Shown here piece by piece: positions 4,490 through 28,650 of a DNA stretch of 64,000 nt. This stretch comes from Azolla caroliniana. Taxonomy: Eukaryota > Plantae > Polypodiophyta. Position numbers and translations under genes: made by a program. The stretch is taken from the NCBI GenBank assembly GCA_043228905.1, contig JBHGNT010000014.1, forward strand, positions 11,966,001-12,030,000, written 5' to 3'. Below the pieces are notes generated by a model. It had not been told where the DNA came from, searched no databases, and worked only from the letters and a program-made list of their open reading frames with translations. Within the stretch, counting starts at the first letter, position 1. The number at the start of each line of letters is the position of its first letter.

Positions 4490-4574
4490 ATAAACTGGTT
4501 TGCTTCCACATATTAACTTTGACACTTTGTAAGTTGTCTGAGCGGAAAAATAAGCTTTGAGTAGTCATGTATAA
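4490..4574 (-). pseudogene. Displaced 3' piece of the old Gypsy pol split by the DNA transposon
   Basis: Joining 27287 to 4570 on the minus strand reads [31 protein letters not shown], the Gypsy RT connection motif. Confidence 0.8.
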
Positions 4575-4600
4575 GGGTCGAAGCACGCTATGGTGTACCA
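4575..4600 (+). repeat. Left terminal inverted repeat
   Basis: Reverse complement of 27261-27286 with one mismatch; preceded by the ATAA TSD. Confidence 0.92.
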
Positions 4601-5098
4601 GAAAAGTACTGTTTTTGGCCATAAAAATTGTCAGTACTTTCAATACTATTAGTACTGAATAATTCAGAAAAAAAATTAGAGAAAAAGAAAATCGATTTTG
4701 GAGAGTGGGGTGACTTTAGTACAAGTGTCATTTACTGTAGAAGGAGTGGGGGGAACACATGAGGAGATGTTCTTCCATTTTGGGGGTTATTTTCCCCTCA
4801 CGTCGATTTTGGCGCTTCCCCTCATACTCCTCTTCCTCTATCCCTCTGAGCTTTTCATCATAGACATCCATGTCACGTTTCTGATTTTCCTTCAATCTAA
4901 ATCTCAGACATCCATGTCTGGTTGGAGAGTTTGAGTTGAGGATTTCTGATTTTTTTAGGGTTTCTGTTTTTGTTAGGGTTTAGGTTGAGGTACAGAGACT
5001 GTTCTGAGGGTTTAGGTAGCAGCCAATAGTGATTTCTTCGACAACGACTTTCTTACTTCCACCGATTGCAGTTGATGTCGTGGTGATTTGGGGCTTTT

Positions 5099-5347
5099 TC
5101 CACCAAATCGAGGCGGCATTGGAGGTTCCTTCCACCAAATCGAGGCGGCATATCCAACGCTCCCTCCACCATTGGAGGTTCCTTCCACCAAATCGAGGCG
5201 GCATATCCAAACGCTCCCTCCACCATTGGAGGTTCATTCCACCAAATCGAGGCTGCATATCCACGCTCCCTCCACCATTGGAGGTTCCTTCCACCAAATC
5301 GAGGTGGCATATCCAACGCTCCCTCCACCATTGGAGGTTCCTTCCAT
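5099..5347. repeat. ~53-bp tandem repeat, about 4.5 copies, upstream of the transposase
   Basis: Unit TCCACCAAATCGAGGCGGCATATCCAACGCTCCCTCCACCATTGGAGGTTCCT starts at 5131 and 5184, with further copies. Confidence 0.9.
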
Positions 5348-7125
5348 CCATTTTTTTATTTTCAGTACTAAAATGTTTCATTTCTTCATATTTCAATACT
5401 AAATTTTTAGAATTGACACTTGTCATATTTGATATGTAATTCTAATGTTTGAAACAAAATATTTCTCACTTTGCAGGCCACATTTAAAAACATTTGATTG
5501 TGTTTTCTTAGTTGAGTCTATATAACATTAACTACTTTCACAAGACACTTAATTTTTGTGGATAAATCTAGTGACCGAATGGGGGTTCCTAACGAGAGTG
5601 AGTTGTCAAGTAACTCATGCATATCTGAAAGGACTAAGAGACGAGTGGTTCTTCACATAGTCCGTTATTTGGTAGAAATAACGAAGAGATTTAGTGAAGA
5701 GGATCGTAGGGATATTATCTGTAGAGTGTTACACCATCAAAGTTTGAATGAAGACATGGAGAGAATAAAATTTAGGGACCAATGTGTTTCAGAAGAGATT
5801 GTGGAGTCTATGAAGTCATCCCTAGACTTAGTGAAAGGTGTAGAGAGCTTAGACAAACTTGTTGCAAAGAGGGCAGCCCTACACATGGTTGTGAACGGTG
5901 CGAGAGAAAAAAAATATAGTGATACTAAAGTTGCCTTAGCCCTGGGTATTCAAAGAAGGAACTTGAGGAAACATCGCCGAAATATACACTCAAGCAAATT
6001 CAAGTGGCTGGGGTTGGGACGTAGACGACGATGTGATGCCTTATCTCAAGAGATTATTGAGAAAGTGGATTCATTTTGGGCCAAAAATACGCGTGTCTCA
6101 CCAAATAAGAAGGACATGTGTAGACAACGAATAAGTCAGGGTAAGTACCAGATTCACCCTAGACACTTCTTGGAGATGACAGAGGTATTCCATTTTTTTA
6201 TATCAATTCACATTCCATAACTTTGCGTTTTGACCAAGTGTATATTAATGTTTGCTATATATATTGGTTGATGTAGGCTGAATTGTACATGAACTTTAAA
6301 GACCAACATCCAAGCTTGACTGTTGGATTCCGCAAGTTCCAAGGTTTGAAACCATTTTATGTTAGAAAATTAAATGAGAGGAATACATGTTGTTGTGTGT
6401 ACCATGTGAAGATGGACATGTTAAGGCTAGCAGTGAATGCAATGCATACTGATTCTAAGGGTATACAAGGGGAATTATGTGTCTGCACTTGTGAGATTTG
6501 TAGACCAAATGGGGAGGATAATAGGTGTAATGCACGAAACATGACTTATGCATCCGTTTCTGAGCTATGGAGGTCTTGTGTTTGTGAAAAAGAACCATCA
6601 TGTGAGTGGCATCGTCGTACATGTCTATTAAGAACGTGTAAGGTTTGTCCGCTACCATTATTTTGTAGGCAGGAGCTTGATTTGGGAAATAGTCATATCG
6701 TGAAATGGAAATATTTGCGACTGAAAATATTGGCAAGGGAGTTGTCACTAAGCGTATCAAGGAAGTATATAAGGAGACATGTGCTGCTACCCTTGTCTCA
6801 GAATTTAAGAAACAACTTGGGGAGTTCATTCCACATAACTTCCGGAGTTATTGGCAAAATTCACAGTTCAAGGAATGTATTAATAACTTACCAACGGGTG
6901 TCATCGTATCCATTATTGATTTTGCAGAAAACTATACATTTAAAGTTCAAAATGAGGTTCAATCAATGCATTGGTACAATGATCAATGTACAATACTTGT
7001 ACATATTTGCTATTGGAGGCAAGACGGTGAGTTACATAAGAAATCAATATTTTACATTTCAGATGATAAAAAGCATAATACACTATCTGTTCAACATTGT
7101 TTTAAGCTTCACCATGCAGATTTAT

Positions 7126-7459
7126 TGTTGAGCGGCAAGCTCAACCGGAGCCGGATCGGCTGAATAAGCCGGAGCCGGTAAGCGAGACGGATCGGGCGAA
7201 ACGGATCGGTATGACGGTGAGCAACCGAACCGGCATGCAGTGGAGGCCGGGTGCAATCCGTAACCGGAAGTCCAATCGGAAGCCTAGTATAGGATAGACT
7301 ACTAGGTAGCTATAGTCTCATAGTAAGTGTTAGATGCTCGTGTGAGCATTGAAATACATGGTACTTCTGTCAGTCCCAAGAGGACTTGTATAAATAGTGC
7401 TACTTAGCACAGTGTGTATATAGAGTCTTGATATAATTTTGAAATTGTGTTCTGCTCTC

Positions 7460-7541
<82 letters not shown>

Positions 7542-7580
7542 GTTCTCTGATTTACACTTCCGCAAACACTTACGTTTACA
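7126..7580 (+). repeat. 5' LTR of Copia, containing (CT)n
   Basis: Direct repeat of 19795-20229; followed by the tRNA-Met PBS. Confidence 0.96.
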
Positions 7581-10500
7581 TGGTATCAGAGCGCGAGGGT
7601 TGAGAACCTCTGCTGCAGACATTTACTCTTGAGAAGAAAACCCTAACAGGTCGAAAACAGACACAGTAAAAGACATGGATAGAGGCATGGCTACGTCGCT
7701 CCCGGTGGAGAAGCTCGACAGGAGCAACTACGCATCCTGGTCTTACAAGATGCACCAGTACCTGCTTGGACACGGGTACTGGAGTTATGTCGAAGGAGCG
7801 AATGATGCGGCGCCCGACTTGGCACACACGCACTTCCCGGTATGGGAACAGGCGGCAAGCAGGGTGATGTACTGCTTCGCGTCCAGTGTCGGCGATCAGC
7901 TCCTCAGCCACATCCGTGACGCCAAGACACCGAAGGATGCTTGGGGGAACCTGAAAAAGGTTTTCGCCGCAAGCACCACTACCCGGAAGCTGCAACTCAA
8001 ACAGGAGTTGAACAATGTTCGACAGAAGAACATGTCCGTGGCAGACTACACGGGCCGGATAAAGGAGATTTGCGACTCGCTCGCCTCTATCAATGTTACC
8101 GTAGAGGAAGACGAGATGGTGCAGGTATGTCTCGGAGGCCTGGCGTCCAAGTTCGGAGCGTTCCGGACTACGGTGTGTACAAGGGAGAATACCCCCTCAT
8201 TCTTCGACTTATAGTCGATGCTCCTTGTAGAGGAGAACCACGCCGGTGCATCTACCAGTGCATCCCCGGAAAGCCGAATGTTGTACACGGGAACAAATCG
8301 GCTCCGTGGGCGTGGTGGAAGAGGTGGGTCGGCACGCAATGGAGGCGGCCGGCAAGAGCAGGAACGGAGGCACTATGAGCGTGCCGACAGCAGTTCCGGG
8401 ACTTCCACAAGCAGGGGGAGTCAAGGCTGTGCCGGAGGCCGGCAAGACAAATCCGCTACGGAATGTTGGTACTGTGGCAAAAAAGGCCACAGGGAAAGTG
8501 AGTGCTGGAGAAAGCGTGCTGATTCGGACAAATCCGGATCCGGCAAGACCGGTAAGGATGGCCGGCAAAACTCGCACTACGCAAACGGATCAGGAGGATC
8601 CGGAACCGGAAAGGCCGGTAAGGGGCCAGCCTTGGTGATGAATCACAAGGCAAACTCAATGAAGAAGACCACTTCCAAAATGGAGGAAGTGTGGTATGTT
8701 GATTCCGGCGCGTCGAACCACATGACGAGCCACAAAGAGTGGTTCTCCTTTTTGGAGAAACCGGATCAACCAAGAGTAGTTGAAACCGGAGACGACACTC
8801 CTCACCAAATCGTGCACGTCGGAGAAGTCCCTCTAAGCCACGTCAGACAGAAAGGGAAGCTGATGAACGTATTACACGTTCCGACAATCACGAAGAACCT
8901 GGTTTCCGTCGGTCAGATTGTCGACCAGGGGATGCAGGTGCGGTTTACGCACCTCGGGTGCTTCATTGAGGATGAGGGCGAAGTCATTGCGCAAGGGCGC
9001 AGAGACGGGAGGATGTTTATCCTCAACACCAATGACTTTGGCACCACTCTGTTCACGAAACGACAGAAGGTCGAGTCGGACATTGACCTGTGGCACAAGC
9101 GGATAGGCCACGTCAACTACCGGAGGCTTCAAGACCTGCAAACGAAACAAGTCGTTTTTGGTTTGCCGAAGTTCAGCAGCCGGAGAGCCGAAATTTGTGA
9201 AGCCTGCCAACTTGGGAAGCAACACCGGCTTCCATTCCCCACCGAACAGAACCGGAGCCGTAACAAGCTCGATCTCATCCATTCGGATGTGTGGGGACCG
9301 GCACAAAGTGTAAGCCTTGGCGGGAGCCGATACTTCATCTCCTTCATCGACGACTATACACGACATACTTGGATCTACCTCATTGAGCGGAAAAGCGAAG
9401 TCTTCGACTGTTTCCGGAGCCTCCAGAAGATGGTGGAACGGGAATCGGAGAGGAAGATCAAATGCCTTCGGTCGGATGGCGGAAAGGAATATTTTTCTGG
9501 CCAATTCACTAGTCATCTGCAGCAGAAGGGAATTCGGCGAGAGTTCAGCTACAGATACACACTGGAGCAAAACGGTGTGGCCGAAAGGAAGAACCGGACA
9601 CTCGTCGAAGCGGCAAGGGCAATGCTGGAGGAGAAGAGCATGCCCCGGTTCTATTGGGTGGAGGCGGTCCAAACGGCCGTCTACATACAAAACTGCATTG
9701 GTGACAAGGTGTCAGCTCATGAGCTGTATTTCGGGTGCAAGCCGAACTTAAGACACCTTCGGATATTCGGCAGAATAGCGTATGTGCATGTGCCGGTTCA
9801 GAAGCGGAGAAAGCTGGATGCAAAATCAGAAAAATGCATCCTAGTCGGCTATGCTCAAGAGCAAAAGGGGTATAAGTGCTTTAACCCCCGGACGAAGGAA
9901 GTCCGAATTAGCCAGGATGTCGAGTTCGATGAATCGGCATCCTGGTACTCCGTACCGACTCCGACTTCCGATCCCGACCCAATGTCGGAAGATCAGGCCA
10001 GTGAGCCGGAATCAGCCCTGGCAGAGGATGATGAAGCCGGGACTCAAGATGAGAGTCCGGAATCGTTACGGTTGAGTGGACCGAACGAGCGACTGAGTCG
10101 GTTGGACCAGTCGGATGAAGAGACGGCAAGTGGTGGAGACTCTGCCATGCTCTCCCCGCGCAAGGAACCGAGGAAACGGTTCACGCGCAAAGAGAAAGGG
10201 AAGAGGAAGATGCCGGAATTCGAAACCGGCAACGATGAGTCGGATCGGTGCGTATCCGACTCCGGAAAGGAGAAAGGCGGATCTTCGGCAACGAAGACCG
10301 AACTGGCCAAGAAGGGCCTCAAATCAGGTGACGGTGCGTTGCGCCCATCAACCCGCCAGAAGGATCCCGTCATGCGGTACGGGTACAATGAATACATGGC
10401 GCATCATTATGCGTACATGACTAAGGTGACCGAAGTGCGTGAGCCGGAGAGCTACGCAGACGCGGCAAAGGACGCAAATTGGCGTGCCGCTATGGACGAA

Positions 10501-11755
10501 GAAATGCGGGCACTCGATGCCAACGAAACTTGGGACCTAGTTGATCCTCCCCGTCATTGTAAACCGATCGGATGCAAGTGGGTGTACAAGGTCAAGTACA
10601 ACGCCGACGGTTCTGTTAACCGGTACAAAGCCCGGTTAGTGGCGAAGGGATACGCGCAGACCCACGGAATCGACTACGACGAGACCTTCGCTCCTGTGGC
10701 GAAGATGACGACGGTTCGTGTGGTACTGGCGGTTGTTGTGGCAAGGGGGTGGCATCTTCACCAATGGATGTGAAGAACGCCTTCCTTCAAGGAGAGCTTG
10801 AAGAAGAAGTCTTTATGACTCAGCCCCTCGGATTTCAATCGGAGATGAACAAGTCGGTGGTATGCCGACTGAAGAAGTCGCTTTACGGCTTGAAGCAAGC
10901 CCCCCGAGCTTGGAACGCGAAGATCAGGCACCGGTTGCGTCAGCTGGGGTTTGCTGTCTCTAAGTCGGACTCTTCGTTGTTCATCCGGCAAGGCTCTGAC
11001 GGTCCGGTATGTTTACTCTTGTATGTGGATGATTTAGTCATCACCGGACCGGGTTGTCGGACGCATTCGAAATGAAGGACCTGGGGGACCTTCATTATTT
11101 TCTTGGGATCGAAGTGATCCGGACCCCTGACAACATATTGCTCTCACAACGACATTACGTGTTGAATATGCTGTATAAGTTCGGCATGACGGATTGCCGA
11201 CCTGTCTCCACACCCCTGGACCGGAACCAGAAGCTTTGTCCCAACTCCGGACCGGCCTGCAATGAGAAACAGTTCTGACAGGTTGTCGGAAGCCTGATCT
11301 ACTTAACCATCACCCGACCCGACATCAGCTATCCGGTCGGCATGGTAAGCCAGTTCATGCAGAAGCCGACCGTGGAGCACCTTCAGTGCGCACAACGAAT
11401 ATTACGGTATGTCAGCAACACTAAGGACCGGGGACTGCTATACCGGCGAGGTATACCCGAAGAGCTTGTCGGTTACACAGATGCTGACTGGGCCGGCGAT
11501 GCGTCTGATCGCCGCTCCACTTCCGGATACATGTTCTCCATAGGTAGCGTGGCCATTGCGTGGAGCAGCAAGAAGCAGCCCACAGTGGCTTGGTCAAGCA
11601 CTGAGGCTGAGGACCGGGCCGCTACCGTTGCCACTTGTGAAGCCATCTGGCTTCGACGACTGCTGCGAGACTTGCGGATCGAGGTACCGACCCCGATCCC
11701 GATTTACTACGATAACATGAGTAGCTTGCAGCTCGCCAGGAACCCTGTGTTCCAT

Positions 11756-12226
11756 TGTTATGTACACATAACGTTGGTGAGGGTAGGTCACTAATATTTA
11801 CATTAGTGAAGGGTATGTTCACTATTATTAAAAAGGGGACTAATGATTGGATAGAATGAATGATATGTGCATGCACTATCATGATTTAGACAACCAATGA
11901 ATAGAGAGCCTTTTAGAAAGGCACATCTATTCAAGGGGCCTAGGAAAAGGTATAAATATGAGGCTTAGCTACCCTCATAGGAATCACGTCGGAAGGTTGC
12001 TGTCGTAGACACCGGTGGTGCGGGCTAGGCTTTCGTCTCGACGATCGTGTTTATCTCTTCCAAGGTATTAGTCATCCTAATATCCGGCGGTATGGGACGT
12101 CGGTGGTAGGTTGGCTATGTCTAGATCATAGCTCGGGGGTGGTCGGGTGGAACGGGTTCTTCTATCCAATCTATTTTCTTCCTTATTACTTGATTTGGTC
12201 TATTGATTAGTAATAGACTCTTAACA
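11756..12226 (+). repeat. 5' LTR of nested chromovirus
   Basis: TGTTATG...TTAACA; near-identical to 18395-18865. Confidence 0.96.
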
Positions 12227-12664
12227 GTGGTATCAGAGCTTTTACTAACAATTTTTTTGTTGTTTTGATGTTTTTTGCGTGTGAGCGAGGGGGATCTAAC
12301 AAGGCTCGTCATGCTCTTCTCAGGATCAAAACAACACTCTAAACCTGGTATTCTTCTTTTTTGATCTCTTCTCTTTTTCTATTATGTGTTCTTTATGGTC
12401 GAATCAAATTGGTATTACGTTTTATTCTCTTTCTTTCTACCTCCTACTACGCTACGATTTTACTTATTATTATGCATCGGGCCGAGCGTGTTTGCACTAA
12501 TCGCACACGCTCAACTCATGGCCTTTTGCATATTGCGATATATATCCCACTCTCTCCTCTCTTGAACTCTTACGATAATAATTATTCTTGTGCATTGGGT
12601 CGAGCGTGTTTGCTCTAATCGCACACGCTTATCTCATGGCCGTTTTGCATATGATGTTGAGTAT

Positions 12665-12990
12665 ACCACTCTTCCTCTCTATTGAGCCATCACTTGGCCA
12701 ATTCTAAGGGATGATGTGGCCTTGACGAGGTGTATGTTGCCTACCTATGCCACTCTACTCTCTATTAAGCCATCAATTGGCCGATTCTATGGGATGTTGT
12801 GGCCTTGACAAGGTATATGTAGCTTACATATGCCACTTTCCTTTTTAATTAGCCATCAATTGGCCGATTCTAAGGGATTATGTGGCCTTGACGAGGTATA
12901 TGTCACTTACCTATGCCACTTTCCTCTTTAATTAGCCATTACTTGGCCGATTCTAGGGATATGTGGTGGTCTTGAGGAGGTGCATGTCAA
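12665..12990. repeat. 83-bp tandem repeat (about 4 copies) in the chromovirus leader
   Basis: AGCCAT anchor at 12685, 12768, 12851 and 12934. Confidence 0.85.
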
Positions 12991-13982
12991 CTACCCTAGG
13001 GTTTCGTATCTTAGGGCATGTTTGATTCCATACACCTAATTGTTGATTATTCTAATTAAATCTTAATTTCATAAGTATTGTTTCACTTATATGATTTTCT
13101 AGTAATTATTATTTACCCGCCCACAATTAACTCTCCTTTTTCCACTTCCTTTTCATGTATAAAGTATTTACATCGTTTATTTTTAATGTAACCTTTACGT
13201 GTAGACTATTTTTTTCGTATGGAGTGACTTGTTGAACGATTTTTTTTCAACGGGTCATCTAGGTTTAACTCTTATCATCAAGCCTTAGAAAACGAGTAAA
13301 ACCATATGAGTTCCCTTATTGATGTTTTACTCATGGATTTGAGTATTGCATCTTTGCGCACAACACCGTCATCACTTGTATCAATTTGTGGCTTATGTCA
13401 CAATTGTGCAAGTTATAACAATCATATTGGGATGTATATGTGCATACCTTGCACTTCCCATTTATTTGTGACATTGTTTTTTTCGTAGGTAACACATGGG
13501 TTCTTTTTTTTTTTACCCTTGTTTTCGTCACTACTTAACTCTTATGAGTAGTGCCTTATTTTATCATTTTATCATCACGTTTGCTTATTGCTCGCAAGAC
13601 TAGAATATTACTTGTGAGTGCACTTGTTTTTTCACGTAATACACTTTCTCGACCATATAATACATGATGGGTTGGCATTAATATAAGGCTATCTAGGAAA
13701 TTTCATTGATGTAAGAACCATGGTTGAGCCTCGGGGAGCCGCCATGATTACTCAAGATAGAGATCCGAGAAATACATCTTAGCTATGTTTTCCCCCATGG
13801 TTTTTAAAACACCATAGTGTTACCATAGTTATCGGATCTCGAATCACATCTCATATGTCTAGAGGGGTAAAGACATGAGATACTTTCTTGGATAAAGTTC
13901 TTTCAATCAAAATTTCAAGCATTCATTTTGCTTGTGTATTTTCTGAACCTCCTTATTTTATTGCATACCCACAGCGTGCATC

Positions 13983-16900
13983 ATGGAACAAGTTTGGAAC
14001 GCAGTTGGAACGATCTCTCCAAATGAGACCTCTCAACCCCAATCCGCATCTCGCACACAAGCTGAGATCACTATTGAGCAATTGCTCACTACTACCTTGA
14101 ATCAATTGGCCGAAATGAGACAGGCCAATATGGCATTGGAAAAGAAATTCCAAGAATTAACTATTGAGTCCAAGAAAGAAGGTGAACCTTCCTTCGTAGT
14201 CACGCCTTTCAAGGGAGATAAGAAAGAAAGAACCGAGGAGGCCATTAGCACTTGGCTTGGTCGTTGGGAGTCTCACTTTGAGCTTCATCCCAAGCCCGAT
14301 GCAGTAAAAATTGGTTATGTCGGTCGTGAGTTAGGTGGCCGAGCTGCTGCTTGGTGGCGTGGCCTAAGGACCGCAAAAAAACTTACCCACAACTTGGGAA
14401 GGTTTCGTTGATGTTTTTAAGAAACAATTCTTGCAGCCACCTTCTCAAACCGAACAAGCGCAACACTTGCTCACATTGTCTAGTAAGCCATTTACCTCTC
14501 TCGAGGATTATGTGCATCACGCTCGGACCCAGATCCAAAAATCGGGACTTACGGGTGAGAAATGGTTTGTCGCTTGTTTTTTAAATGGTATTCCCAATGG
14601 GGATTATCATTGGATTGTCCATGACAAGGACCCCACAACTTTCGAGGAAGCCGTCAACATTGTGCTGCGATACCATAGGACTTCCAAGAAAGACCACAAT
14701 AAACCTGAGTTCACCAAAACTCCGAATGTCAAGTTCATTGGGAAACGTAAGCAATCCAGTGACACTCTTGACCGCGACTCAAAGAAACCGAACCTCTTCT
14801 GTGCATATTGCAAGAAGCGGGGCCACACAAAGGATACCTGTCGTCGTCTTGAGAGGAAGTCAATGAACACCCCTCCTCAAGACAAATCTACGAGTCACAC
14901 AGGTGAGTCTTTTGATATTGTTGAAGTTCATACCAATCACTTAAGTTTATGTGAATGCACTTTTCCTTCACATTTACTTGGACCTAATGATTTACTCCGA
15001 GCAGTCGGATATATCAATGGAACACAAGCACATTTCTTGTTTGATTCCGGTAGTTCTCACAATTTTCTTAATGATCACTTTGTGCAGCAAATGGAGCTCC
15101 ACATAAACGCAAGTGATCATATCTATCAAGTTCACATGGCAAATGGAAACGTTCAATACATCAGTGGCATTGTTTGTCAACTGCCAATTCAAATAGATAC
15201 TTATTTGGAGAAGCTTGACTTTCATGTTATGAAATTACAATCCGCAGATGTCATTTTAGGATATCCTTGGTTTTTTAATAAAAACCCTTCTTTGTCCATT
15301 GATTGGGTTAATCACTCAATCACATTTGAACTTAATAATTGTAAACATTTTATTCAATGTTCCAAACTTCCTTCTCATTCACTTGTGTCTTCTAAATCTT
15401 TAAGTGAGTATTCTAGTTCATTAATTTATTCGTGTGTAATTGATCCTGCGGTTCAATTTTATTATTTTAATATTGACGCCACACAATTACCACATTTTGA
15501 GCAACGATTACTCGACTCTATTTTAGAGGATTTTCAAGATGTGTTTCATACTGAATTACCGCTTACTTTACCACCTAAACGTAATGTGGACCATCAAATT
15601 GAACTCATCCCTGGGGCTGCTCCTGTGAGCATTCCACCTTACCGACTTAGTCGATTAGAAGAGGATGAGATCGCTAAACAACTTAAGGAATACTTGAGTA
15701 TGGGCCACATTAGGTATAGTAAATCACCTTGGGGTGCGCCAGTTCTATTAGTCAAGAAGAAGGAAGGTTCGTGGCGAATGTGTATCAATTATCGCCGTTT
15801 GAATAAAATGACAATTAAGAATGCATATCCATTACCTCGTGCCGATGATTTGATTGATCGTTTGCACGGGGCTCGATATTTTACGAAAATTGACTTACGA
15901 ACTGGTTATCATCAGATTCGCATCGCCGAGGATGATATTCCTAAAACCACTTTTCGTACGCGCTATGGCCATTATGAGTTTTTAGTCATGCCGTTTGGGT
16001 TGACTAATGCTCCAGCCACATTCCAACAAGCGATGAATGATGTTTTCCGAGATCAACTCGGTGATTTTGTTGTCGTCTTCTTGGATGATATTTTGATATA
16101 TAGCCGTACCTTGCAAGATCATGTTCAACATGTTCGATTTGTTTTGCGAAAGTTGCGTGACAACTCTTTCTATGCAAAACATTCAAAATGTGACTTCTTC
16201 CAAAAATCTATTGTGTACCTAGGTCATTTAATTACAGAAAATGGCGTTGAAATTGAACCTTCTCGTATTGAAAAGGTTAAACTTTGGCCCATTCCTCGTA
16301 ATATTCGTGAACTTAGATCATTCTTAGGGTTTGTTGGATTTTTACGAAAATCAATTCGTAACTATTCCAAATTGACTACGCCATTAACTGACCTTTTAAA
16401 AGGTCATCCACGTAAGTCTGTCAAACCAATTTCATGGAATGAACAACTTGACAAATCATTTGAGACACTCAAGGAGCATGTGTGTCAAGCTCCCACTCTT
16501 CTATTACCAGACCCTTCTAAGCCTTTCTCAATTGAAACCGATGCTAGTGATTATGCTATTGGTGCCGTTCTTTATCAAGGTGGTCACCCTATTGCTTTTG
16601 AAAGTAAGAAGCTTGATGCTGCTCAATCTCGGTATTCGGTTCAAGAGAAAGAGTTGTTTGCGGTGATACACGCACTTAAAACATGGAGGCACTATCTCTA
16701 TGGAAATAAATTTGTGGTTACAACAGACCATCAATCATTAAAGTATTTTTGTGACCAGCCCGATCTTGTTGGTCGTAAAGGCCGTTGGGCTGACCTTATG
16801 CAAGATTTTGATTTTTCCATACGATATCGCAAGGGTTCTATGAACACCGTTGCTGATGCTCTTAGTCGCATTAAAGAAGTTAACATGCTTAGCTTCACGG

Positions 16901-18387
16901 AAATAAAATCTGATCTTTTAGATCACCTTCGAGGGAAATACCTTGATGACAGTTATTTCTCAAAATACTGGACGAAAGCCGAATCTGGTTTAGATGCCGA
17001 TACTAGCACCCTACCCTCGAAGGCGACCTTTCACATTACAAACGGTTTGCTCTACCGTAGTGGAAAGGTCTGTGTTCCAGATTTACCAAATGTTAAACAG
17101 AAAATTTTTCATGAATGTCATGATGCACCATCTGCTGGTCATCCTGGAATACAACGCACACTCGTTCTCATCTCGTGTACTTTTTTCTGGCCTAAGATGC
17201 GCTCTGACGTGCATAAATACGTAACTCAATGCTTACAATGTCAGATTAATAAGTCAGAACGACTTAAAGCTGCTGGTCTTTTACATCCCTTAGATATTCC
17301 CAACAATAAATGGGAAAGTATCTCGATGGATTTTATTGTTAGTTTACCTCGTACACAGAGGGGTCATGATGCCATATGGGTTGTCGTTGACAGGCTAACA
17401 AAATTAGCTAGATTTATTCCTACAAAAACCACGGTAACCGCTCAACAGTTGGCTTATCAATTTGTTGATGAGTTATTTCGTTTTTATGGATTACCGATGG
17501 ATATTGTTAGTGATCGAGATTCCAAGTTTACTAGTGACTTTTGGACTCAGGTCTTTAAGAAACTAGAAACTACGTTGAGCATGAGTTCCGTAGATCATCC
17601 TCAGTCTGATGGACAAACTGAACGAGTTAATCAAATTATTGAGGACATGCTTCGAGCTTATGTAGCAAAAACCCCGTCTAAGTGGGAGCAATACCTTCCT
17701 ATCTTAGAATTTGCCTATAATAGCTCTAAACATACATCCACTGGATATAGTCCTTTTATGTTGATGTATGGTTTTCAGCCACGTGCCCCAGTTGATGTCA
17801 CGATTCATCGTGATACATTAGACAGTACACGCAATTTTTTGCAAGACATGAACCAAATGTTGCATATTGCCAAAGAAAATGTCAAGACAGCTCAAGATCG
17901 TGCTCGATTTTATGCTGATCAGGATAGACGTCCTCGTGCATTTACTATTGGTCAAAAAGTTTTTTTGCGTGTCCCGACTGATCCTACGTCATTATCTACG
18001 GGCAAGTGCGCTAAGTTAGCCCCACGATATTGTGGCCCATTTGAAATCCTTAAGCGAGTTGGGTCATCTGCTTATCACCTTGCCTTACCTCGTAACGTTG
18101 GTATTCATCCTGTTTTTCACGTCAGTCGTCTAAAACCATTTTTAGGCTCTGGTGATAACACCATCACAATCCAAGATCTTGTAACATTAGAGGATTTTTC
18201 TTACAAACCTCATGTTCCTGAACGAATTCTTGATTCTCGTACTAAACGTTTACGTTCTAAAGAGATTCGGCTATTCAAGATCAAATGGATGGATAAACCT
18301 ATTGATGATGCCACATGGGAACGCGAGCATTCGCTTAAGGCACAATTTCCTCACTTTATATTGCAAGAGTGCAATCTTTTGAAGTAG
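13983..18387 (+). CDS. Gypsy Gag-Pol polyprotein (gag, CCHC, PR, RT, RNase H, INT, chromodomain) with one frame break near 14390
   Basis: ORFs 13983-14411 and 14431-18387 (1318 aa): CAYCKKRGHTKDTC, LFDSGSSH, FLDD, ETDASD, integrase HHCC and core, and a C-terminal chromodomain PERILDSR...IKWMDKPIDDATWE. Confidence 0.93.
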
Positions 18388-18394
18388 GGGAGTA

Positions 18395-18865
18395 TGTTAT
18401 GTACACATAACGTTGGTGAGGGTAGGTCACTAATATTTACATTAGTGAAGGGTATGTTCACTATTATTAAAAAGGGGACTAATGATTGGATAGAATGAAT
18501 GATATGTGCATGCACTATCATGATTTAGACAACCAATGAATAGAGAGCCTTTTAGAAAGGCACATCTATTCAAGGGGCCTAGGAAAAGGTATAAATATGA
18601 GGCTTAGCTACCCTCATAGGAATCACGTCGGAAGGCTGCTGTCGTAGACACCGGTGGTGCGGGCTAGGCTTTCGTCTCGACGATCGTGTTTATCTCTTCC
18701 AAGGTATTAGTCATCCTAATATCCGGCGGTATGGGACGTCGGTGGTAGGTTGGCTATGTCTAGATCATAGCTCGGGGGTGGTCGGGTGGAACGGGTTCTT
18801 CTATCCAATCTATTTTCTTCCTTATTACTTGATTTGGTCTATTGATTAGTAATAGACTCTTAACA
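18395..18865 (+). repeat. 3' LTR of nested chromovirus
   Basis: Direct repeat followed by the TCCAT TSD. Confidence 0.96.
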
Positions 18866-19794
18866 TCCATGCTCGCACAAAGCACATCGAGGTGCACTAC
18901 CACTTCGTGCGTGAGCGGGTCCTGAGCGGTGAAGTTGACCTACGGTATGTTCATACGGATCGGCAAGTTGTCGACATCTTCACCAAGCCGCTCGGATCGG
19001 ACAAGTTGCAGCACTTTACCGACATGCTTGGTATTCAGCATCTCGACGTGCCGCACTTGAGGGGGAGAAGCAAGGGCAAAGTCTCTACCGAAATGGGCAA
19101 AGGCCAAAAAACTATTGAACACGTCGGTAAGAGGAGAGCCGGAAGAAGAGGAGACAAGAAGATGAAGGAAGCCGAGTCGACAAAGGAAGTCGACACATCC
19201 GAACAGGTCGGAGCAAGCGGCTGTGAAGAAGAGTTGTGCACTCAGGAAGAGAAGTGCATGTTGTGCGGAGGTCATCACGACGGTACTGACCATGATGCAG
19301 AGTCGAATGAAGAATTCGATTTCGGTTCACCGGCTGAAGAAGCTGAAGGAAGCATGGAGAAGGCTAGGACTCGAAAGTGGTTCGATGTGGTGAGAGGCCT
19401 GAAGCCGGAAGTCGAATCGGAGTGTACCGATTCGGACAAGAGCTGGAACGAGTCGGAGACAGCTGACTCGGATCAATAGATGGATCCGGATGAGTCGGAT
19501 CGACTGAAGACCAAGGGGACACGGACACAGCGGAAGTCGATGCCATCGTGGGAGAACCGACGGATCGGCAAGCGCCGGAGTCACAGCAACGTGAGTGCTG
19601 AGATGGGCCTATTGAGCAGACATGTCAACCGAGAGGGTTGAGGCGCGCAGAACCGAAGGGGTCGCGGCAAACGGGACCAGACCGGACTAGGAGCGCGAGC
19701 AAGGCGAAGTGATGCCAGGAGAAGTCGGTTGGAAGAACCGACTGCCACAGAGGTCGACACTACGACCCCACCTCAGGTTGAGCTTGAGGGGGAG

Positions 19795-20124
19795 TGTTGA
19801 GCGGCAAGCTCAACCAGAGCCGGATCGGCTGAATAAGCCGGAGCCGGTAAGCGAGACGGATCGGGCGAAACGGATCGGTATGACGGTGAGCAACCGAACC
19901 GGCAAGCAGTGGAGGCCGAGTGCAATCCGTAACCGGAAGTCCAATCGGAAGCCTAGTATAGGATAGACTACTAGGTAGCTATAGTCTCGTAGTAAGTGTT
20001 AGATGCTCGTGTGAGCATTGAAGTACATGGTACTTCTGTCAGTCCCAAGAGGACTTGTATAAATAGTGCTACTTAGCATAGTGTGTATATAGAGTCTTGA
20101 TATAATTTTGAAATTGTGTTCTGC

Positions 20125-20189
<65 letters not shown>

Positions 20190-20229
20190 TGTTCTCTGTT
20201 TTACGCTTCCGCAAACACTTACGTTTACA
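19795..20229 (+). repeat. 3' LTR of Copia
   Basis: Preceded by the PPT, followed by the TTTAT TSD. Confidence 0.96.
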
Positions 20230-20519
20230 TTTATTTTCTCTAGGGTTAACCTTTAACCGTCATTGGGTTTGGTCTGATGGTGCTGCCTCGCAGTTTAAGG
20301 CAGCACGATCGTTCTACTTTATCGCCAGGTAATTTTTAATCCATATGTTTAGTACTTATCATGCAATGTGTAAGGAAGTAATTCTTGTGTTAGTGGATGC
20401 ATACTAATTATGTTTGTAACTATTAACAAACAGTACTATTCACATGGATGCATACTAATTATGTTTGTAACTATTCAAATCTTGCACTTGTGAATGGATG
20501 CATGCATACTAATTTTGTT

Positions 20520-21340
20520 TGTACTATGTTGTGTGTTGTATCTGTACTAAATCAGTATTTATTGAAGGATGTAAAGTACTCGTATTGTACTCTATAGTAT
20601 TGTCTGTCCTTAAGAGAATTGTACTAAGTAACTTTTAATCCATGTGAAGTGTTCTCCATAGACACATTGTACTATGTTGTGTTTACAAAAGGATGTAAAG
20701 TACTCATCTTGTACTCATAGTATTGTCCGTCCTTAAGAGAATTGTACTAATTATCTTTTTATCCATGTGAAGTGTTCTCCATAGACACATTGTACTATGT
20801 TATGTGTTGTATCTGTACTATGTTGTGTGTATAGAAGGATGTAAAGTACTCATATTGTACTCAGAGTATTGTCCGTGCTTAAGCGAATTGTACTAAGTAT
20901 CGATTAATCCATGTGAAGGGTTCTCCATAGACACATTGTACTATGTTGTGTGTTGGTTCTGTACTATGTTGTGTTTACAAAAGGATGTAAAGTACTCATC
21001 TTGTACTTATAGTATTGTCCGTCCTTAAGAGAATTGTACTAATTAAGTTTTAATCCATGTGAAGGGTTCTCCATAGACACATTGTACTATGTTGTGTGTT
21101 GTATTTGTACTATGTTGTGTTTACAGGAGGATGTAAAGTACTCATCTTGTACTCATAGTATTGTCTGTCCTTAAGAGAATTGTACTAAGTATCGATTAAT
21201 CCATGTGAAGGGTTCTCCATAGACACATTGTACTATGTTGTGTGTTGGTTCTGTACTATGTTGTGTTTACAAAAGGATGTAAAGTACTCATCTTGTACTT
21301 ATAGTATTGTCCGTCCTTAAGAGAATTGTACTAAATCAGT
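20520..21340. repeat. 146-bp tandem array in transposase intron 2
   Basis: CCATGTGAAG anchors at about 20640, 20763, 20909, 21055 and 21201; variants alternate. Confidence 0.9.
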
Positions 21341-22476
21341 ATTTACTCATGTTGTACTCATAGTATTGTACTCATCTTGTACTCATCTTTTAAACACACT
21401 ATGTGGTACTGATTATCTATTAATCAATGTTCAGCGTTCTCCATGAACACACTGTATTGTACTATGTGTTGTATCTATACTAAATCAGTGTTTATTGGGG
21501 GATGTAAAGTACATGTCTTGTAGTACTAATGATCTTCTAAGGAGGGTTGTGTTCTCTGTGGACACATTGTACTGTACTATCCGATATTGAACATTTTGTA
21601 CTATTTATCTGTTAATACATGTAGAGTGCTTTCCATGAACTCATTGTACTATACTTTGTGCTATATCCATACTAAGTTAGTATTAAATGGATGCCAGGTA
21701 CTGTTGGTTGACAACATAGTACTATTTATCTTTTAATAAGTGTAGAGTGTAGTACTCTCAATTGACAACGTAGTACTAATTTTGTTGGAAACCTGAGATA
21801 CCAAAGCAGGTATTTCTCCTTATTCAATATTCGTATGCAATGGAATTACTTCAGGTCTGGACATGGAAAAGGAGAGCATGATGGCGCGGGGGCTGTGATC
21901 AAACGTGCCCTTACAAGTGAGTAGTTGGATAATAATGGTGCTAAGTTACAAAATGCACATGATGTTGTGCAGTGGCTAACATGGAAGATGTCAAATGATG
22001 GCAAGAACAGATTGTTTGTTGAAGTTCACGTTGATGAGGTCGATAGAACTAAATCATATGGTTGTAAAACCGTGAAAGGCACACGCAGCACCCATTGTGT
22101 GTTAGGGTTTAGCTGCAAGGACACAACACAATTGTTACTCCGTAGTTTATCATGCTTTTGTTCCATGTGTCTAGATGAAGCTTGGGATAAATGCATCAAC
22201 CTATCAATCGTGGAGCCCTGGAAGCTGCAGAAGCTTGAGCCTGAACGACAAGATGATATTGAAGAGGATGTGCATTCAAACGATATTGTATACTACAACC
22301 AAAATCAAGACTTGGCAGTTTTATTGGAAGTTGGAGATCATTTTGCAGTGCTCAAATCTCCTCATTTTGCAGTGTTTTCAAAGTCTGACTTTTGACATGT
22401 ACCTGGGAGTGTGATAAATTCGTCTTCACGATCAGGTTTTGGACTCGTATCTCCGTCACCAAATATCATTTCGTCA

Positions 22477-25400
22477 TCAGCTAGTAACACAAGTACATGG
22501 TATTAGACAATGGATTAGGTTGACAATGCTCCGGACAGGTGAGAACTTATATGACTCACCATTGCATTCAACTTTGCCTTTCTTGCCGTTTCCATACAAC
22601 TTTCTTGCAGCATTTCTCTTCTTACTGGGCTCTATTTGTAAAGAAACTGCATTTCTCTTCTTAGTGGGCTCTATTTCTTGATGTTGACCGGAGCTTGGGG
22701 AATTTGTTTGTAGAAGCATATGTTCCACTGCTCCAATGGCCCTTCTCATACATTCATCCTCATCATAAAAATCATAGGTTATTGGTAATGATGGTCCCTG
22801 AACCTTGGAATGTGCAGCAGATATTGAGGGTTTAGGCACAGGGGCTGGTTGTTCCATTACCTTCCTTGGCGTGGAGTTGCTTGACACTACAACATTCATT
22901 GCAAGAAACAAAAAAACCTTAAATGTTAGTACCATCATCTAAAATATATAATGTAGGTCACAAGAGCTGCTTCCCATATTACACAATGTACCAATCATGA
23001 ACAATGTACTACTCACATAGTTCCTAAATTACTGAACTAGTACTAATAAGGAACATTGTACTGCTCACTTAGTTCACAATTTACACAAGTAGTACTAATC
23101 ATGCACAATATACACAAGTAGTACTAATCATGCACAATATACTACTCACTTAGTTACCAAATTACACAAGGAGTACTAATCCCGAACAATGTACCACTGA
23201 CTTAGTCAAATTAAAAAGTAGTACTAATCTTGAACAATGTACTACTCACTTGTTTCCTAAATTACTGAACTAGTATTAATAAGGAACAATGTACTACTCA
23301 CTTAGTTCCCAATATACACGATTAGTACTAATCATGCACAATATACACAAGTAGTACTAATCATGCACAATATACTACTCACTTAGTTACCAAATTAAAC
23401 AAGTACTAATCCCGAAAAATGTACCACTGACTTAGTCAAATTAATAAGTAGTACTAATCTTGAACAATGTACTACTCACTTAGTTACCAAATTACACAAG
23501 GAGTACTAATCCCGAACAATGTATTGCTCACTTAGTTCCCAATTTACACAAGTAGTACTAATCGTGCACAATATACTACTCACTTAGTTACCAAATTACA
23601 CAAGGAGTACTAATCCCGAACAATGTAATGCTCACTTAGTTCCCAATTTACACAAGTAGTACTAATCATGCACAATATACTACTCACTTAGTTACCAAAT
23701 TACACAAGGAGTACTAATCCCGAACAATGTACCACTGACTTAGTCAAATTACACAATTAGTACTAATCCTAAACAATGTACTACTCAACAATGTACCACT
23801 GACTTAGTCAAATTACACAATTAGTACTAATCCTACAAAATGTTCTACTCACTTATTTTCTAGATTACTGATCTAGTATTGATAAGGTACAAAACTAGTA
23901 CTAATAAGGAACAAAGTACTACTCAGTTCCCAAATTACAAAACTAGTATTAATCATGAGCAATGTACTAATAACTTAGTTCACAAAGTACAGAACTAGTA
24001 CTAATCATGAACCATGTAGTACTTACTAAGTACTAATCCAACAAATGTAGATTGGTATTTTGCACACAAGTAATACTAAACGTGATATGTGTTCTACACA
24101 CCTAGTTACATAACTTGTACTAATTACACCAACAGTATTAATCTTGAACAGTATTAGTACTAAACGTGATATGTGTTTGACACACCTCATTTCCAAATTA
24201 CAATAATTGTACTATTATTCAGCAATTTACTATACACCTTGTTCCCAAATTACATTACTAGTACTAATTCCCAAGTTACACAAACAATACTAACAGTCAA
24301 CAGTGTACTATAAGTATAGTGTTTACTCAACTAATACTAGGCAAGTTGCAATATAGATTGGACAATGTTGTACCTGGTTCCCTTTTAGTACTACTAATTC
24401 TGGAAAATATCCCTTCAACTACACATACCAATTATATATTAAGAGTACTGCCAATACTAACCCACATAATTAGGGTTCCACATAATAGTTGTTAGAGATT
24501 ACACTAAATTTGAAGTATGAATTGTGGCATACACTAGTTCTAGTCCAAATGTTAATTGACATCATATAATACAAACAATAGAATAGTAGAGCCACATACC
24601 GTACGGGTGTACTTTTAAACCCCAAGCATTGTACCACTCAGCCGCAATTGTAGTTTTACAGTCCATACATGTATTCTCTTTCTCAAAATGATACTTAGCA
24701 CATAGCACATGATATGTGTGCAAGCATGGTGTAATCACAACATCCATAGCCTCCAGCTTGAATCCGAGGCCACAAAATATACACCTGGAAGATTGCAAAC
24801 ACACTTATAATATATTAGCTACTCACTTATTTATACCAGAGAAGTAGAAATAAATAACTTTTAAAGCCAATACCGTGATATAGCTATACTAGTAATGGTA
24901 CTTTCTATACCACTTGGGTGCTCAATTACAGATGGACACAAAGTATCAAAACCATTTTGTTTTAAATCCTGCATCAAGCATGCAAGGTTCTCAGAATGCA
25001 ACTTTAAGGCTGACAACTTATTATCTATTTCTTCATGTGCATTCCTGCAAGTATCAAGGTCTCTCATCTGTGAACCTAATTGAGTGCCCATATTGTTCAG
25101 CTCTTTCTTCAACTCCTCTTTCAACACCTCACTTTCTGAATTTTGGATTGTCGATGCAATCCATTCATATGTAGTTTTTATTGAAGAAAATTTCTTTTCT
25201 GCCTGTATCTCAGCTGATTTAACTGCTTCCAAATCAGCAAGTAGTGCTTGTATTCTTGAGCTCATAGAAGCTATGCAACCGGCCATCATCTGTTCATGCT
25301 TTTCAGTCATTGTGGCCCGTACCTTTGCCTCTAGAACTTGGTGGACAGGTGTTGTAGCTGGAATATCCACATGAGAGGTTCCAGATGACTTCAAGCCAGT

Positions 25401-25868
25401 GTTGGTACTGGAGGACCCTTTGTAATGTTCTGACCGGTGCCGATTAAAATCTCCCCAATTTACGTCAATGCCACCTTGAACTTCACATGCAAAAGCACAT
25501 GCAAAAACAGTACCCACCTCATTGTTAGTGATTTGATTTGTATCATAAACATGTTCGTATCTCGTCTTCAATAAATTCATGTATTCCCTCTTCAAACCAC
25601 TTATGTGGAATCCTCGCCTTGTGTCGGGATGTGCTAACCCCTAGGTTTTTAACAACCACTCTCTCAGCTCTGGATAAACGCCAGGTCATGCTCGAAGGAA
25701 ATAATTCCATCCAAGAGGTGTGTCTCGACTGATGGAGTGGTACATCTTCTTTCTCTGTGTTGATGAATTCATCACCCTTTCTCTTGTGGGTGTCCTTCTT
25801 CCTTCCTTCACTGGTGTCTTCACTTTCTCTTTCATCAATGTCTTCTTTATGGGTGTCCTTCTCGTCAT
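22477..25868 (-). pseudogene. Second gene of the DNA transposon: basic N-terminus, coiled-coil and RING-H2 finger protein, about 530 codons
   Basis: Exons 25868-24874, 24784-24600 and 22886-22477 join in frame across GT-AG introns 24873-24785 and 24599-22887. RING-H2 pattern CIFC-x15-CLHTYHVLC-x10-CMDC. In-frame stops at 25686-25688 and 25641-25643. Confidence 0.75.
22990..24330. repeat. ~52-bp AGTACT-rich tandem array in the intron of the RING gene
   Basis: AGTACTAAT at 23502, 23554, 23606, 23658 and 23710, alternating between two variants (104-bp higher-order unit). Confidence 0.9.
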
Positions 25869-25929
25869 TGTCCTAGTCAACACAATTCTCAGGGAATGAA
25901 TATGCATGTACTAGAAGAAAACTCAAGCA

Positions 25930-26300
25930 ATTACCATCAACACATAGCAAATCATCACATTGCATGTACAAACCATGTCAAACACACAATAACCCTAAAT
26001 AGTCGGAAAAATACTCATCCATGTCAAACACACAGACAATAAAAACAGACGGATAGGAAAGTCAAAGAAAACGAAAACATTGTAAATCATCATAGCCAAC
26101 TCCATCACATCGCATGTACAAGCCATGTCAAACACACAAAAACCCAAAATAGTCGGAAAAAAACTCATCCATGTCAAACTCACACAAAATAAAACAGATG
26201 GACAGGAAACAAGAACAAAACGAAAACATAGCAACTCATCATAGCCAACTCCATTTACGTTGCATGTACAAACATGTCTAACACACAACCACCTCAATCA
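25930..26300. repeat. 150-bp tandem repeat, about 2.5 copies
   Basis: GCATGTACA anchors at 25962, 26112 and 26262. Confidence 0.8.
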
Positions 26301-26920
26301 AAATATTGTCATACATTTTTAAAAGAAACACAGAGAAAACAAAAACATACCAGTTAGGCATGCAACACATAAACTATGAATAATCAAAACCTAAAAATGG
26401 CCATACACATGCAAATAAAAAACAGACAGACAGGAAACATTCAGAAAAAGAAAACATACCAGTCGGGCATGCAACACAGAGAATACCTGGAGGTTGTACA
26501 ACTTGCAGAGGTACCACACCGTGTTGATTTCGACACCTTGGGAGCACACCAAGCCTTCAAAATCACCTATATGCAAGAGGTTGTTGACGAGGCTGTTGTA
26601 GAGGAGACAAACGAGCATACACAGAGGAGACAAACGAGCATACACAAGGAAGGAAAATCAACAACACATACAACGAGCAGGGGAAACAAAAATCTCTGCG
26701 TATACAGAGTTCAGAGATCGAACCTGGCACAAAGGGGAACACAAGAACAGCTACGCGGGGAAACAGAGAATCGAAGGTGGAGTGAGAGAGAGAAACTGAA
26801 AGAAAGAAAGAAACAGAGCTTCGAAGGTGGAGTGAGAGAGAGAAAGAGAGAGATAGACCTATAATAGATATGTCGTCTTTCTTTAACTTTCTGCCACTGT
26901 CTGTCTGACAACTTCGAGAC

Positions 26921-26966
<46 letters not shown>

Positions 26967-27260
26967 CCAACTGACACGTTCGACTACCCATACCAGAGAG
27001 AGAGAGAGAGAGATACTGAGACTGACCAACTGTCACAATGGATACCTTCTCTAGGTGTGCTTTCATACAACTCTACCTAGGAGACTGGGGCAACAATTAA
27101 TGTATCAAATATGGCCTAGGGACATTTCGAGTGTGACGTATAATATCTTTGTGCATTCGAGTGTGACGTAATGAATTTGTTTTTTGTTTTTTGAAATTTA
27201 TTTACAATTTTTAATGTTTATTTTCTTCTTCGATTTAGTACTAAATTTTTGGCCAAAAGT

Positions 27261-27286
27261 TGGTACACCATAGCATGCTTCGACCC
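27261..27286 (-). repeat. Right terminal inverted repeat
   Basis: TGGTACACCATAGCATGCTTCGACCC followed by the ATAA TSD. Confidence 0.92.
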
Positions 27287-28650
27287 ATAAACTTGTGATA
27301 GAAGTTTACGAATCCTAAAAAGCATTGCACATCTTGCAATCAACGTGGAGTCTACCACTTCAACACTGTTTGGACTTTAGCTGGATCCATAGAGATGTCT
27401 TCCGATGAGATGACATAGCCTAGAAATTCCACCTAATTACAGTCAAAGCCACACTTTTCCAGCTTTGCATAAAGACCATGTTCTCATGATCGTCTTAGCA
27501 CTAATAGTACATGAGAATCACGCTCCTCTTGTGACTTTGAATAAACTAGCAGATCATCCAAGTAGATGATCAAATAGATGTCCAAAAGATCTCGGAATAT
27601 AATGTGCTAGAAAACCGTTGGTGCATTGGTGAGACCAAATAGCATAACTTTATATTCAAAGTGCCCATATCGGTTGCGGAAAGTTGTCTTCCATTCGTCT
27701 CCCGGTCGAATCCGTTCAAGGTTATATGTTCCTCATAAGTCGATTTTTCTAAAACACTTTGCGGCATTAATTCCTTCTAAAAGACTCGAGATCAGGGGAA
27801 GTTCATACCTATTCCTAATGGTGACCTTATTCAAGCCACGATAATCCATGACTAGATGAAGTGATCCATCTTTGTTCTTGACAAAAAAAATAGGTATACC
27901 AGCTGGAGATTTTGAATGTCAAATGAACCCATTTGCCAAATTTTCCTCTATGTAGGCTCGAAGAAATTCAAGCTCGATTGGTGACAAGTTATAGATCGGT
28001 CCCCACAGTGGCTCTTTTCCGGGTTGTAAGTCAATGGAACAATCATACGGTCAATGATGAGGAAGAGTACTAGCTTTTACCTTATCAAAAACATCAGTGT
28101 AATGATGATACTTATTTAGAAGTTGAATTGTTGACTCCTCCTTAGTGGTGTTGGAAGGTTTCATTGATACTGTGAATACATGTGTTGCTTCCTTGCGTCC
28201 TTCCTCACGCAATTGATGTAACGAAATCATTGAAATCTTATGAGTAGATCCTCGAGGTTGTCAATACCCGATTTCTCTTGTTCTCCGATCTACGTCCGGA
28301 TTGTGTAATTAGAACCATGGTAACCCCAAAACAAGTGGATGCTCTGGACTACTAATTATATTAAATGATACTAAACATTCCAAATTATTTAGGACAACAT
28401 TAATCAGCTTTGACTCTTCTACAATATTTCCAGAAGCAATAGGACGACCATCAATGACTACTACAGAAGCTGGGCAAGGGAGTTTTCTTAAGGATATCTA
28501 ATGACCTTGGGCAAAATTATTATCCATGAAGCAAGAATTGGCTCCGGAATCTAGGAGTGCTAAGACATGTATTGGAGGATTACGTTTAGTACTAATTGTT
28601 ACTTGAGCTAGGAAGACATTGTTAACTTGATTGGAGGGAATGGAACCACT
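27287..28650 (-). mobile_element. Old degenerate Gypsy (Tcn1-like) protease-RT fragment
   Basis: The minus strand encodes ALLDSGANSCFMD, PLVLGLPW, IYLDDLLVYSK and FLGFVNFY, with many stops and frameshifts. Confidence 0.8.

Follow-up and report, generated by a model that had tools for sequence, protein, structure and literature searches.

The stretch of DNA analysed here, called the window, comprises 64,000 nucleotides of the 523-Mb Azolla caroliniana genome (G000:C14:11966001-12030000). A Sola2 cut-and-paste transposon occupies window positions 4575 to 27286; its family has two genes, but this copy has suffered an internal deletion and is dead. The element is bounded by terminal inverted repeats (TIRs), carries a transposase gene and an opposite-strand second gene (gene 2), and is interrupted by a Copia long terminal repeat (LTR) retrotransposon. 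Its features are given below in window coordinates, with the basis of each in brackets.

4571..4574, no strand: left target-site duplication ATAA (repeats compared; empty site in 11/11 Gypsy copies)
4575..4600, plus strand: 5' TIR, 26 bp (end comparison and genome pattern matches)
4605..4656, no strand: three subterminal AGTACT palindromes (3 in 200 bases against a shuffle mean of 0.08)
5579..6184, plus strand: transposase exon 1 (gene model; intron 1 joint in one contig of run X2)
6277..7125, plus strand: first part of transposase exon 2, holding the Cys-rich region and Asp 1, with a 7-bp frameshifting deletion at 6716 (comparison with an intact copy)
7126..20229, plus strand: nested Copia LTR retrotransposon with a TTTAT duplication, no part of the transposon (domains, duplication; site empty in 10/10 other copies)
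20235..20328, plus strand: last part of transposase exon 2, holding SDG (Asp 2) (comparison with an intact copy)
20329..21809, plus strand: transposase intron 2, a 146-bp tandem array with 12 AGTACT (repeat count; joint in one contig of run X2)
21810..22364, plus strand: transposase exon 3, holding HGKGEHDG (Asp 3), with a premature stop near 21922, truncated by the internal deletion where the BAH-like tail begins (comparison with an intact copy)
22365..22373, no strand: internal-deletion junction, 2.5-2.7 kb lost, ~8 filler bases (comparison with other copies)
22403..22480, minus strand: gene 2 exon D, predicted (gene model)
22560..22886, minus strand: gene 2 exon C, predicted (gene model)
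22887..24599, minus strand: gene 2 intron 2, a 52-bp tandem array with 25 AGTACT (repeat count)
24600..24784, minus strand: gene 2 exon B, the RING-H2 finger (gene model, Pfam scan)
24874..25868, minus strand: gene 2 exon A, encoding a basic TP-repeat head, a small helical domain and a long coiled coil, with two premature stops (gene model, predicted fold)
27237..27242, no strand: subterminal AGTACT (motif count)
27261..27286, minus strand: 3' TIR, 26 bp (end comparison)
27287..27290, no strand: right target-site duplication ATAA (end comparison)

The two TIRs agree at 25/26 positions, both start with GGG, and ATAA stands on either side, as the initial annotation of the window had described. 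The insertion target is the pol region of a decayed Gypsy element on the minus strand. The same annotation took this Gypsy as independent confirmation of the ends, and rightly so: when the flanks were searched separately, both abutted in 11/11 other copies of the target Gypsy and shared exactly 4 bases, which locates the ends without recourse to the TIRs. The left flank matches the target Gypsy for only ~50 bases (window 4525-4574) before different sequence begins. Exact genome-wide matches to two TIR patterns numbered 15 and 202 against 0 in reversed controls, which excludes chance. Duplications of 4 bp were found in 20/20 copies with two ends (the window copy, 9 top-scoring copies, 3 more, and 7 from 10 TIR pairs).

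Excision of 7126-20234 leaves 9,603 bases. The family had been described as ~9.6 kb long on this basis, but the value belongs to a deletion derivative, as intact elements measure 11.9-13.1 kb; one of them, 12.2 kb long, lies at G000:C7:5494647-5506820. Apart from the Copia insertion, the window copy is damaged by the 7-bp deletion at 6716, by premature stops (one in exon 3 and two in gene 2), and by the 2.5-2.7-kb deletion, which removed the last ~110 transposase codons and the final two gene 2 exons. The filler at the deletion junction (window 22345-22380) duplicates a word that lies ~25 bases upstream, a pattern known from template-switch repair and suggestive of abortive gap repair. The two Copia LTRs differ at 11 aligned positions, and a chromodomain Gypsy with an LTR identity of 470/471 lies inside the Copia at 11756-18865. 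Compared with the nearer reference copy, the window copy has diverged by 1.5% (55/3,613 exon positions compared).

All three Asp motifs proposed for the split transposase are present in the window copy, at 6918-6920 (DFAENY), 20276-20278 (SDG), and 21880-21882 (HDG). Its exons sum to ~714 codons with the frameshift disregarded, close to the ~710 first claimed, but this holds for the deleted copy only; the intact copy (L048+L049) encodes an open transposase of 813 amino acids in three exons. For introns 1 and 2, GT-AG joints were found in contigs from runs that are probably RNA (runs X1-X4 are presumed to be RNA, none being recorded as such, and the joints rest on single contigs, 2.6-4.9 deep, all belonging to one study). 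These joints and the two-gene model bear out the description of the element as intron-containing and two-gene.

Every feature that could be tested here identifies the element as Sola2, as had been proposed. Sola2 termini read 5'-GRG, and the element combines 26-bp GGG TIRs, a 4-bp duplication, the DDD motifs, and a DDE fold in a homologue model. In the 813-residue model, D419, D502, and D543 lie in DFAENY, SDGAASQFK, and HGKGEHDGAG, which match by eye the published alignment of Hydra, Aedes, sea urchin, and Bombyx Sola2 transposases, as do the words CVC..H and GTRS.H beside them (PMC3627910 additional file 10). A 4-bp target-site duplication defines Sola in the available text of two reports (PMC3627910, PMC10741241), the latter giving a TIR range of 11-1124 bp for the superfamily (PMC10741241). 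Homologue searches returned 99 proteins and, at E <=0.001, 16,731 cluster representatives. A tree of the transposase, proposed with the initial annotation, placed the element in a 64-row clade with support of 99; two Klebsormidium rows and Ceratodon are named in it, and it also holds P0193, a Calypogeia protein, and P0096, a Klebsormidium protein. This quick tree covers the 177/245 rows that span the core, mostly unnamed, and contains neither Repbase rows nor a Sola1/Sola3 outgroup.

A structure model of P0003, a homologue that shares 51% identity with the query exon, has a predicted local distance difference test (pLDDT) score of 84, and its core matches integrases and Mos1 at Z 8.4-9.6 (best Z 9.6, root-mean-square deviation (rmsd) 3.5, 144 aligned). 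Through this homologue model, the transposase core is assigned an RNase H-like DDE/integrase fold. It is extremely improbable that the element belongs to another DDD/E superfamily with 4-bp duplications. Such a placement could draw on the tree, which has no Sola1/Sola3 rows, and on the absence of any Pfam or PDB sequence match naming the transposase: a Pfam scan of the window copy, the intact copy, and 47 homologue rows gave no match, and a PDB sequence search with a profile of the 47 homologues found no solved relative. However, the three catalytic motifs with CVC..H and GTRS.H follow the Sola2 alignment, and P0099, whose cluster includes a coral protein, shares the catalytic motifs of the element.

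The tail of the transposase may be BAH-like, which is a lead and not a domain call. For P0003 residues 452-568, 11/50 fold-search rows align, all BAH-bearing (7 by title, and the remaining 4 presumably so), at Z 6.0-7.1, rmsd 2.4-3.8, and 78-95 aligned, and aromatic columns are conserved in the homologue tail alignment. Against this, the Z scores of 6-7 were obtained with a homologue and lie in a range described by the tool as common, Foldseek E for the P0003 tail against BAH exceeds 0.05, no Pfam BAH match occurs in the 47 homologue rows, and a protein atlas search with the tail returned unnamed clusters only.

The family has been active recently, because eight copies at different sites differ by only 3-9 substitutions across ~12 kb (26 variable columns); these were chosen as top matches and are therefore the youngest, and assembly polishing could raise their likeness. 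Their flanks, duplications, and repeat lengths differ, and all share the open exon pattern of the modelled intact copy. They come from a search of the genome with a transposase exon (150 scored matches of 904 candidates), from which the 10 top-scoring copies were fetched; 9 have both ends in range, 11.9-13.1 kb apart, and 10/10 lack the Copia. Target-site duplications of the two-ended copies are varied and mildly AT-rich, with no strong target consensus. Young copies L056-L057, L066, and L001 lie inside LTR retrotransposons, one of them in a Gypsy 71% like the target in the window. No short TIR pairs suggesting miniature inverted-repeat transposable elements were seen among the 100 matches listed of the 202, and a search of the genome with a distant transposase as query returned the same families. 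An older subfamily, B, shares the layout in the same genome, with gene 2 in 10/10 fetched loci (selected via gene 2) and the adjoining transposase in 7/10.

Gene 2 lies on the opposite strand, tail to tail with the transposase, in six predicted exons with five GT-AG introns and an open model of ~922 amino acids; one joint is present in a contig of run X2, and the others are predicted. The protein would consist of a basic TP-repeat head, a helical domain (~49-160), a long coiled coil, a RING-H2 finger, and an acidic tail with 17-residue repeats. The C3H2C3 spacing of the finger (C-x2-C-x17-C-x-H-x2-H-x2-C-x10-C-x2-C) is kept in most subfamily B copies and in distant loci. A fold search with exon A found coiled coils only. 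No match came from a PDB sequence search with exon A and a profile of the N-domain, no usable one from a protein atlas search with the N-domain, and none from a phage search with gene 2, while a protein database search found close relatives only (6 matches; 1 match); distant relatives were recovered from DNA loci.

These distant loci come from metagenomes, where 80 loci were examined and 20 extend >=3 kb past the transposase. A RING, an N-domain, or both occur in 10/20, representing ~7 distinct elements whose transposases are 30-44% identical, and 9 of the 10 have gene 2 on the opposite strand. An N-domain profile built without the present family scores its N-domain at E 0.0014, compared with 0.24 for the best of 500 shuffles. 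In comparison with subfamily B, the transposase has a ratio of nonsynonymous to synonymous substitution (dN/dS) of 0.12-0.17, and five parts of gene 2 have ratios of 0.22-0.35, all intervals being wide but <1 (measured against majority codons of 7-11 subfamily B copies with the acidic tail left out, by local alignment that favours conserved codons). These ratios indicate that gene 2 is kept under purifying selection. Gene 2 is taken to be functional, since its model is open, one of its joints is present in a contig, it is under purifying selection, and it recurs beside distant transposases.

Both genes are accompanied by arrays of the palindrome AGTACT. In the intact copy, 35 of 47 occurrences lie in the two long introns (15 + 20), and none in the transposase exons or gene 2 exons A-E; outside the element, the window holds 15 in 54 kb. 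In gene 2 exon F (L066:1774-2050), a 51-bp coding repeat has AGTACT in each of its 6 units, so that expansion of the motif may have produced the peptide repeat incidentally. The introns of subfamily B hold 9-12 AGTACT each, and no alignment between A and B or between introns reaches E 0.001. AGTACT also lies just inside both TIRs, with three copies in the first 200 bases and one in the last 200, and this position is shared by subfamily B. Other families have arrayed words of their own (e.g., CCATTAA 37 times, CTAATTA 49 times, GTAATTA 32 times, ATCAGGA 18 times), often in an intron and the downstream region; at eight other-family loci, chosen for an enriched word, 200/203 occurrences fall outside transposase exons. 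In a distant family (46% identity), L160:37-50 holds the word GGGTGAAAGCA near the contig start, resembling the subfamily B TIR, and the intron arrays consist of GGTGAAA.

If gene 2 were a captured passenger and the arrays neutral satellites, its faster evolution relative to the transposase (0.22-0.35 against 0.12-0.17), its low-complexity tail, and the ease with which AT-rich repeats arise would be expected. This explanation is very unlikely and largely refuted, given the purifying selection, an architecture and orientation conserved beside transposases of 30-44% identity, and the retention of one word in four non-aligning arrays.

The position of AGTACT near the ends allows two further explanations. 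Protein 2 could be a transposition cofactor that binds the near-end palindromes and aids transpososome assembly, the intron arrays raising its local concentration. En/Spm TnpA and the Harbinger Myb protein offer parallels for such a cofactor. TnpA-TnpD complexes have been modelled, according to the accessible part of one report (PMC13547354). Retention of the subterminal palindromes in subfamily B and the company that gene 2 keeps with the transposase across distant hosts fit this proposal. It is nonetheless rather doubtful: 35/47 AGTACT are found in the long introns, at a distance of kilobases from either end, and gene 2 is missing from half of the long loci. Moreover, the alignment published for animal Sola2 covers transposases alone, and end synapsis does not need a RING-H2 finger.

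Alternatively, the transposase itself could bind the motif, with the arrays titrating it, and protein 2 could be a brake, whether as an E3 ligase responsible for transposase turnover or as a self-limiting regulator of another kind. The subterminal motif is compatible with such a brake, as are other signs of self-limitation among the transcripts. One contig of run X1 joins L048:3506 to L048:7876; exon 2 is here spliced to a site beyond exon 3, on the strand antisense to gene 2. Its product would lack Asp 3, would end after ~18 codons (read by hand), and might be a repressor or decay isoform. Further plus-strand GT-AG joints occur in contigs at L048:8171-8298, antisense to gene 2 (runs X1, X3), and at L048 5091-5266, 3312-3406, and 1340-1482, two within transposase exons and one in the 5' leader. 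Exon-3 skipping and antisense splicing are hints of further regulation. However, a brake leaves unexplained both the conserved helical N-domain and the family-specific words in introns, and we consider it unlikely.

The reading preferred here is that protein 2 is a VANC-like, motif-directed anti-silencing factor with a ubiquitin-ligase module, because the pattern mirrors that of VANDAL transposons and their VANC proteins; we give it an even chance of being correct. In Arabidopsis, a VANC accessory protein binds a family-specific word and removes methylation, VANC21 binding YAGTATTAY arrayed by intron tandem repeats, and VANCs with tandem peptide repeats are described in the available text (PMC5735166). 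From the anatomy of the element, TIR binding, excision, and insertion with a 4-base stagger are very probably the work of the transposase, acting by standard DDE chemistry, and its BAH-like tail might contact target nucleosomes. Protein 2, likely acting as a coiled-coil dimer, would use its small helical domain to bind the AGTACT copies of the two long introns and those near the ends of the element, and its RING-H2 finger would ubiquitinate silencing factors or chromatin at the arrays, keeping the element transcribable. The window copy was afterwards hit by the 7-bp deletion, the stops, the Copia insertion, and the internal deletion.

In a wider and more tentative form, which we hold possible but short of probable, streptophyte Sola2 would be an old lineage, still mobile here, with an independently evolved VANC-like system in which a family-specific intron word and a DNA-binding RING-H2 ligase strip silencing from the copies bearing that word, and in which the BAH-like tail steers insertion by histone marks.

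Several observations weigh against a VANC-like role. The AGTACT copies 30-77 bases inside the ends suit the transposase or a transposition cofactor as binder. Motif counts are inflated by tandem amplification, and the words were selected post hoc; the stronger point is therefore the retention of a single word by arrays that are unrelated. In one control stretch of the window, too, a word is enriched. Pfam zf-RING_2 matches gene 2 at E 4.5e-5 with 24.1 bits, below the cut-off of 27.3, beyond the RING no named Pfam family was matched, and the N-domain model is poor (pLDDT 50-70). Among the long metagenome loci, 10/20 show no gene 2, some of these being decayed, and at L198:4745-6170 a homologue with stops lies on the strand of the transposase, in a rearranged or different layout. 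In three polyA runs with ~37 million records, strain unspecified, only 11 reads fall on the gene 2 region, and thus the element is nearly silent in those runs.

The surroundings of the element are rich in retroelements. Further left of the Gypsy remnant lies a decayed Copia on the minus strand, and another decayed Copia at ~48000-53000 (minus) is related to the nested one. Within 28000-64000, there are also a LINE-type (long interspersed nuclear element) endonuclease frame at 29903 and a Gypsy at ~54500-58900, and a (TAATAC)n tract occupies 38850-39035.

The initial annotation regarded Sola2 as found mainly outside land plants, which was too strong: homologues are present in Ceratodon, Calypogeia, and Klebsormidium, and partial texts of published reports name Sola2 the most abundant DNA-transposon superfamily of Cupressus sempervirens (10.64898/2026.07.23.736688, 2026 preprint) and list SOLA in Azolla (PMC6786969), Sola in Ceratopteris (PMC6890710), and Sola1 in Physcomitrella (PMC10741241, PMC9033089). 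In the available text of these records, Sola or Sola2 is abundant in non-flowering land plants, with no structure, second gene, motif, or activity described; the supplements of PMC6786969 gave 0 matches. The suggestion of an undescribed family stands in part. Two-gene Sola elements of amoebae and a brown alga are in print, as are land-plant Sola/Sola2 annotations. No RING-bearing, motif-arrayed, or BAH-tailed Sola was found in the literature searched, outside which lie subscription papers, Repbase, and bioRxiv supplements (e.g., the cypress transposable element library) that may describe the family. If the architecture alone holds, it would still represent a widespread accessory gene seemingly missed by annotations of seed-free plants.

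Sola is among the least studied DDE superfamilies, and we know of no Sola transposition assay. Near-identical copies with both genes open make Sola2 chemistry, target choice, and regulation testable. If protein 2 is a motif-directed anti-silencing ligase, sequence-specific counter-defence would have arisen twice in plants, in unrelated superfamilies (VANDAL elements are Mutator-type), and a compact protein-plus-motif pair would be at hand for targeted chromatin work. Were the wider streptophyte VANC-like system real, it would add an E3 ligase that is encoded by a transposon and addressed by sequence, and a working Sola transposase would be available from the intact copies.

Among known systems, the Sola2 group shares with the element DFAENY, SDG..QFK, HGK..DG.G, an upstream Cys-rich region, short TIRs, and the 4-bp duplication, but the element differs in its RING-H2 second gene, intron motif arrays, longer BAH-like tail, and separate clade with support of 99 (PMC3627910 additional file 10). 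The dictyostelid Sola2-Fanzor1 elements DFa-1/2/3 and PPa-1/4/5 likewise have two genes, ~12 kb, short TIRs, and a 4-bp duplication; as far as the available text goes, their second gene is Fanzor, swapped between families, and their duplications follow AWWT, which only 2/20 fit here (PMC3627910). Sola1-1_Ec32 of Ectocarpus is likewise large and has, on the opposite strand, an accessory gene presumed to act on the DNA of the element itself, but it belongs to Sola1, and its accessory protein is described in the accessible part as ParB plus an amino-methyltransferase, with no RING (PMC12477816). VANDAL/VANC differs in that function is proven there and proposed here, and in that a RING goes unmentioned for VANC in the text available (PMC5735166); a Pfam scan detected no homology between gene 2 and VANC, whose sequences were not directly compared. 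The pattern is nevertheless shared, with an accessory gene, a family-specific motif in tandem repeats of introns and at the ends, and tandem peptide repeats (17 residues in gene 2), and YAGTATTAY, the word bound by VANC21, differs from TAGTACTAA by a single base (PMC5735166).

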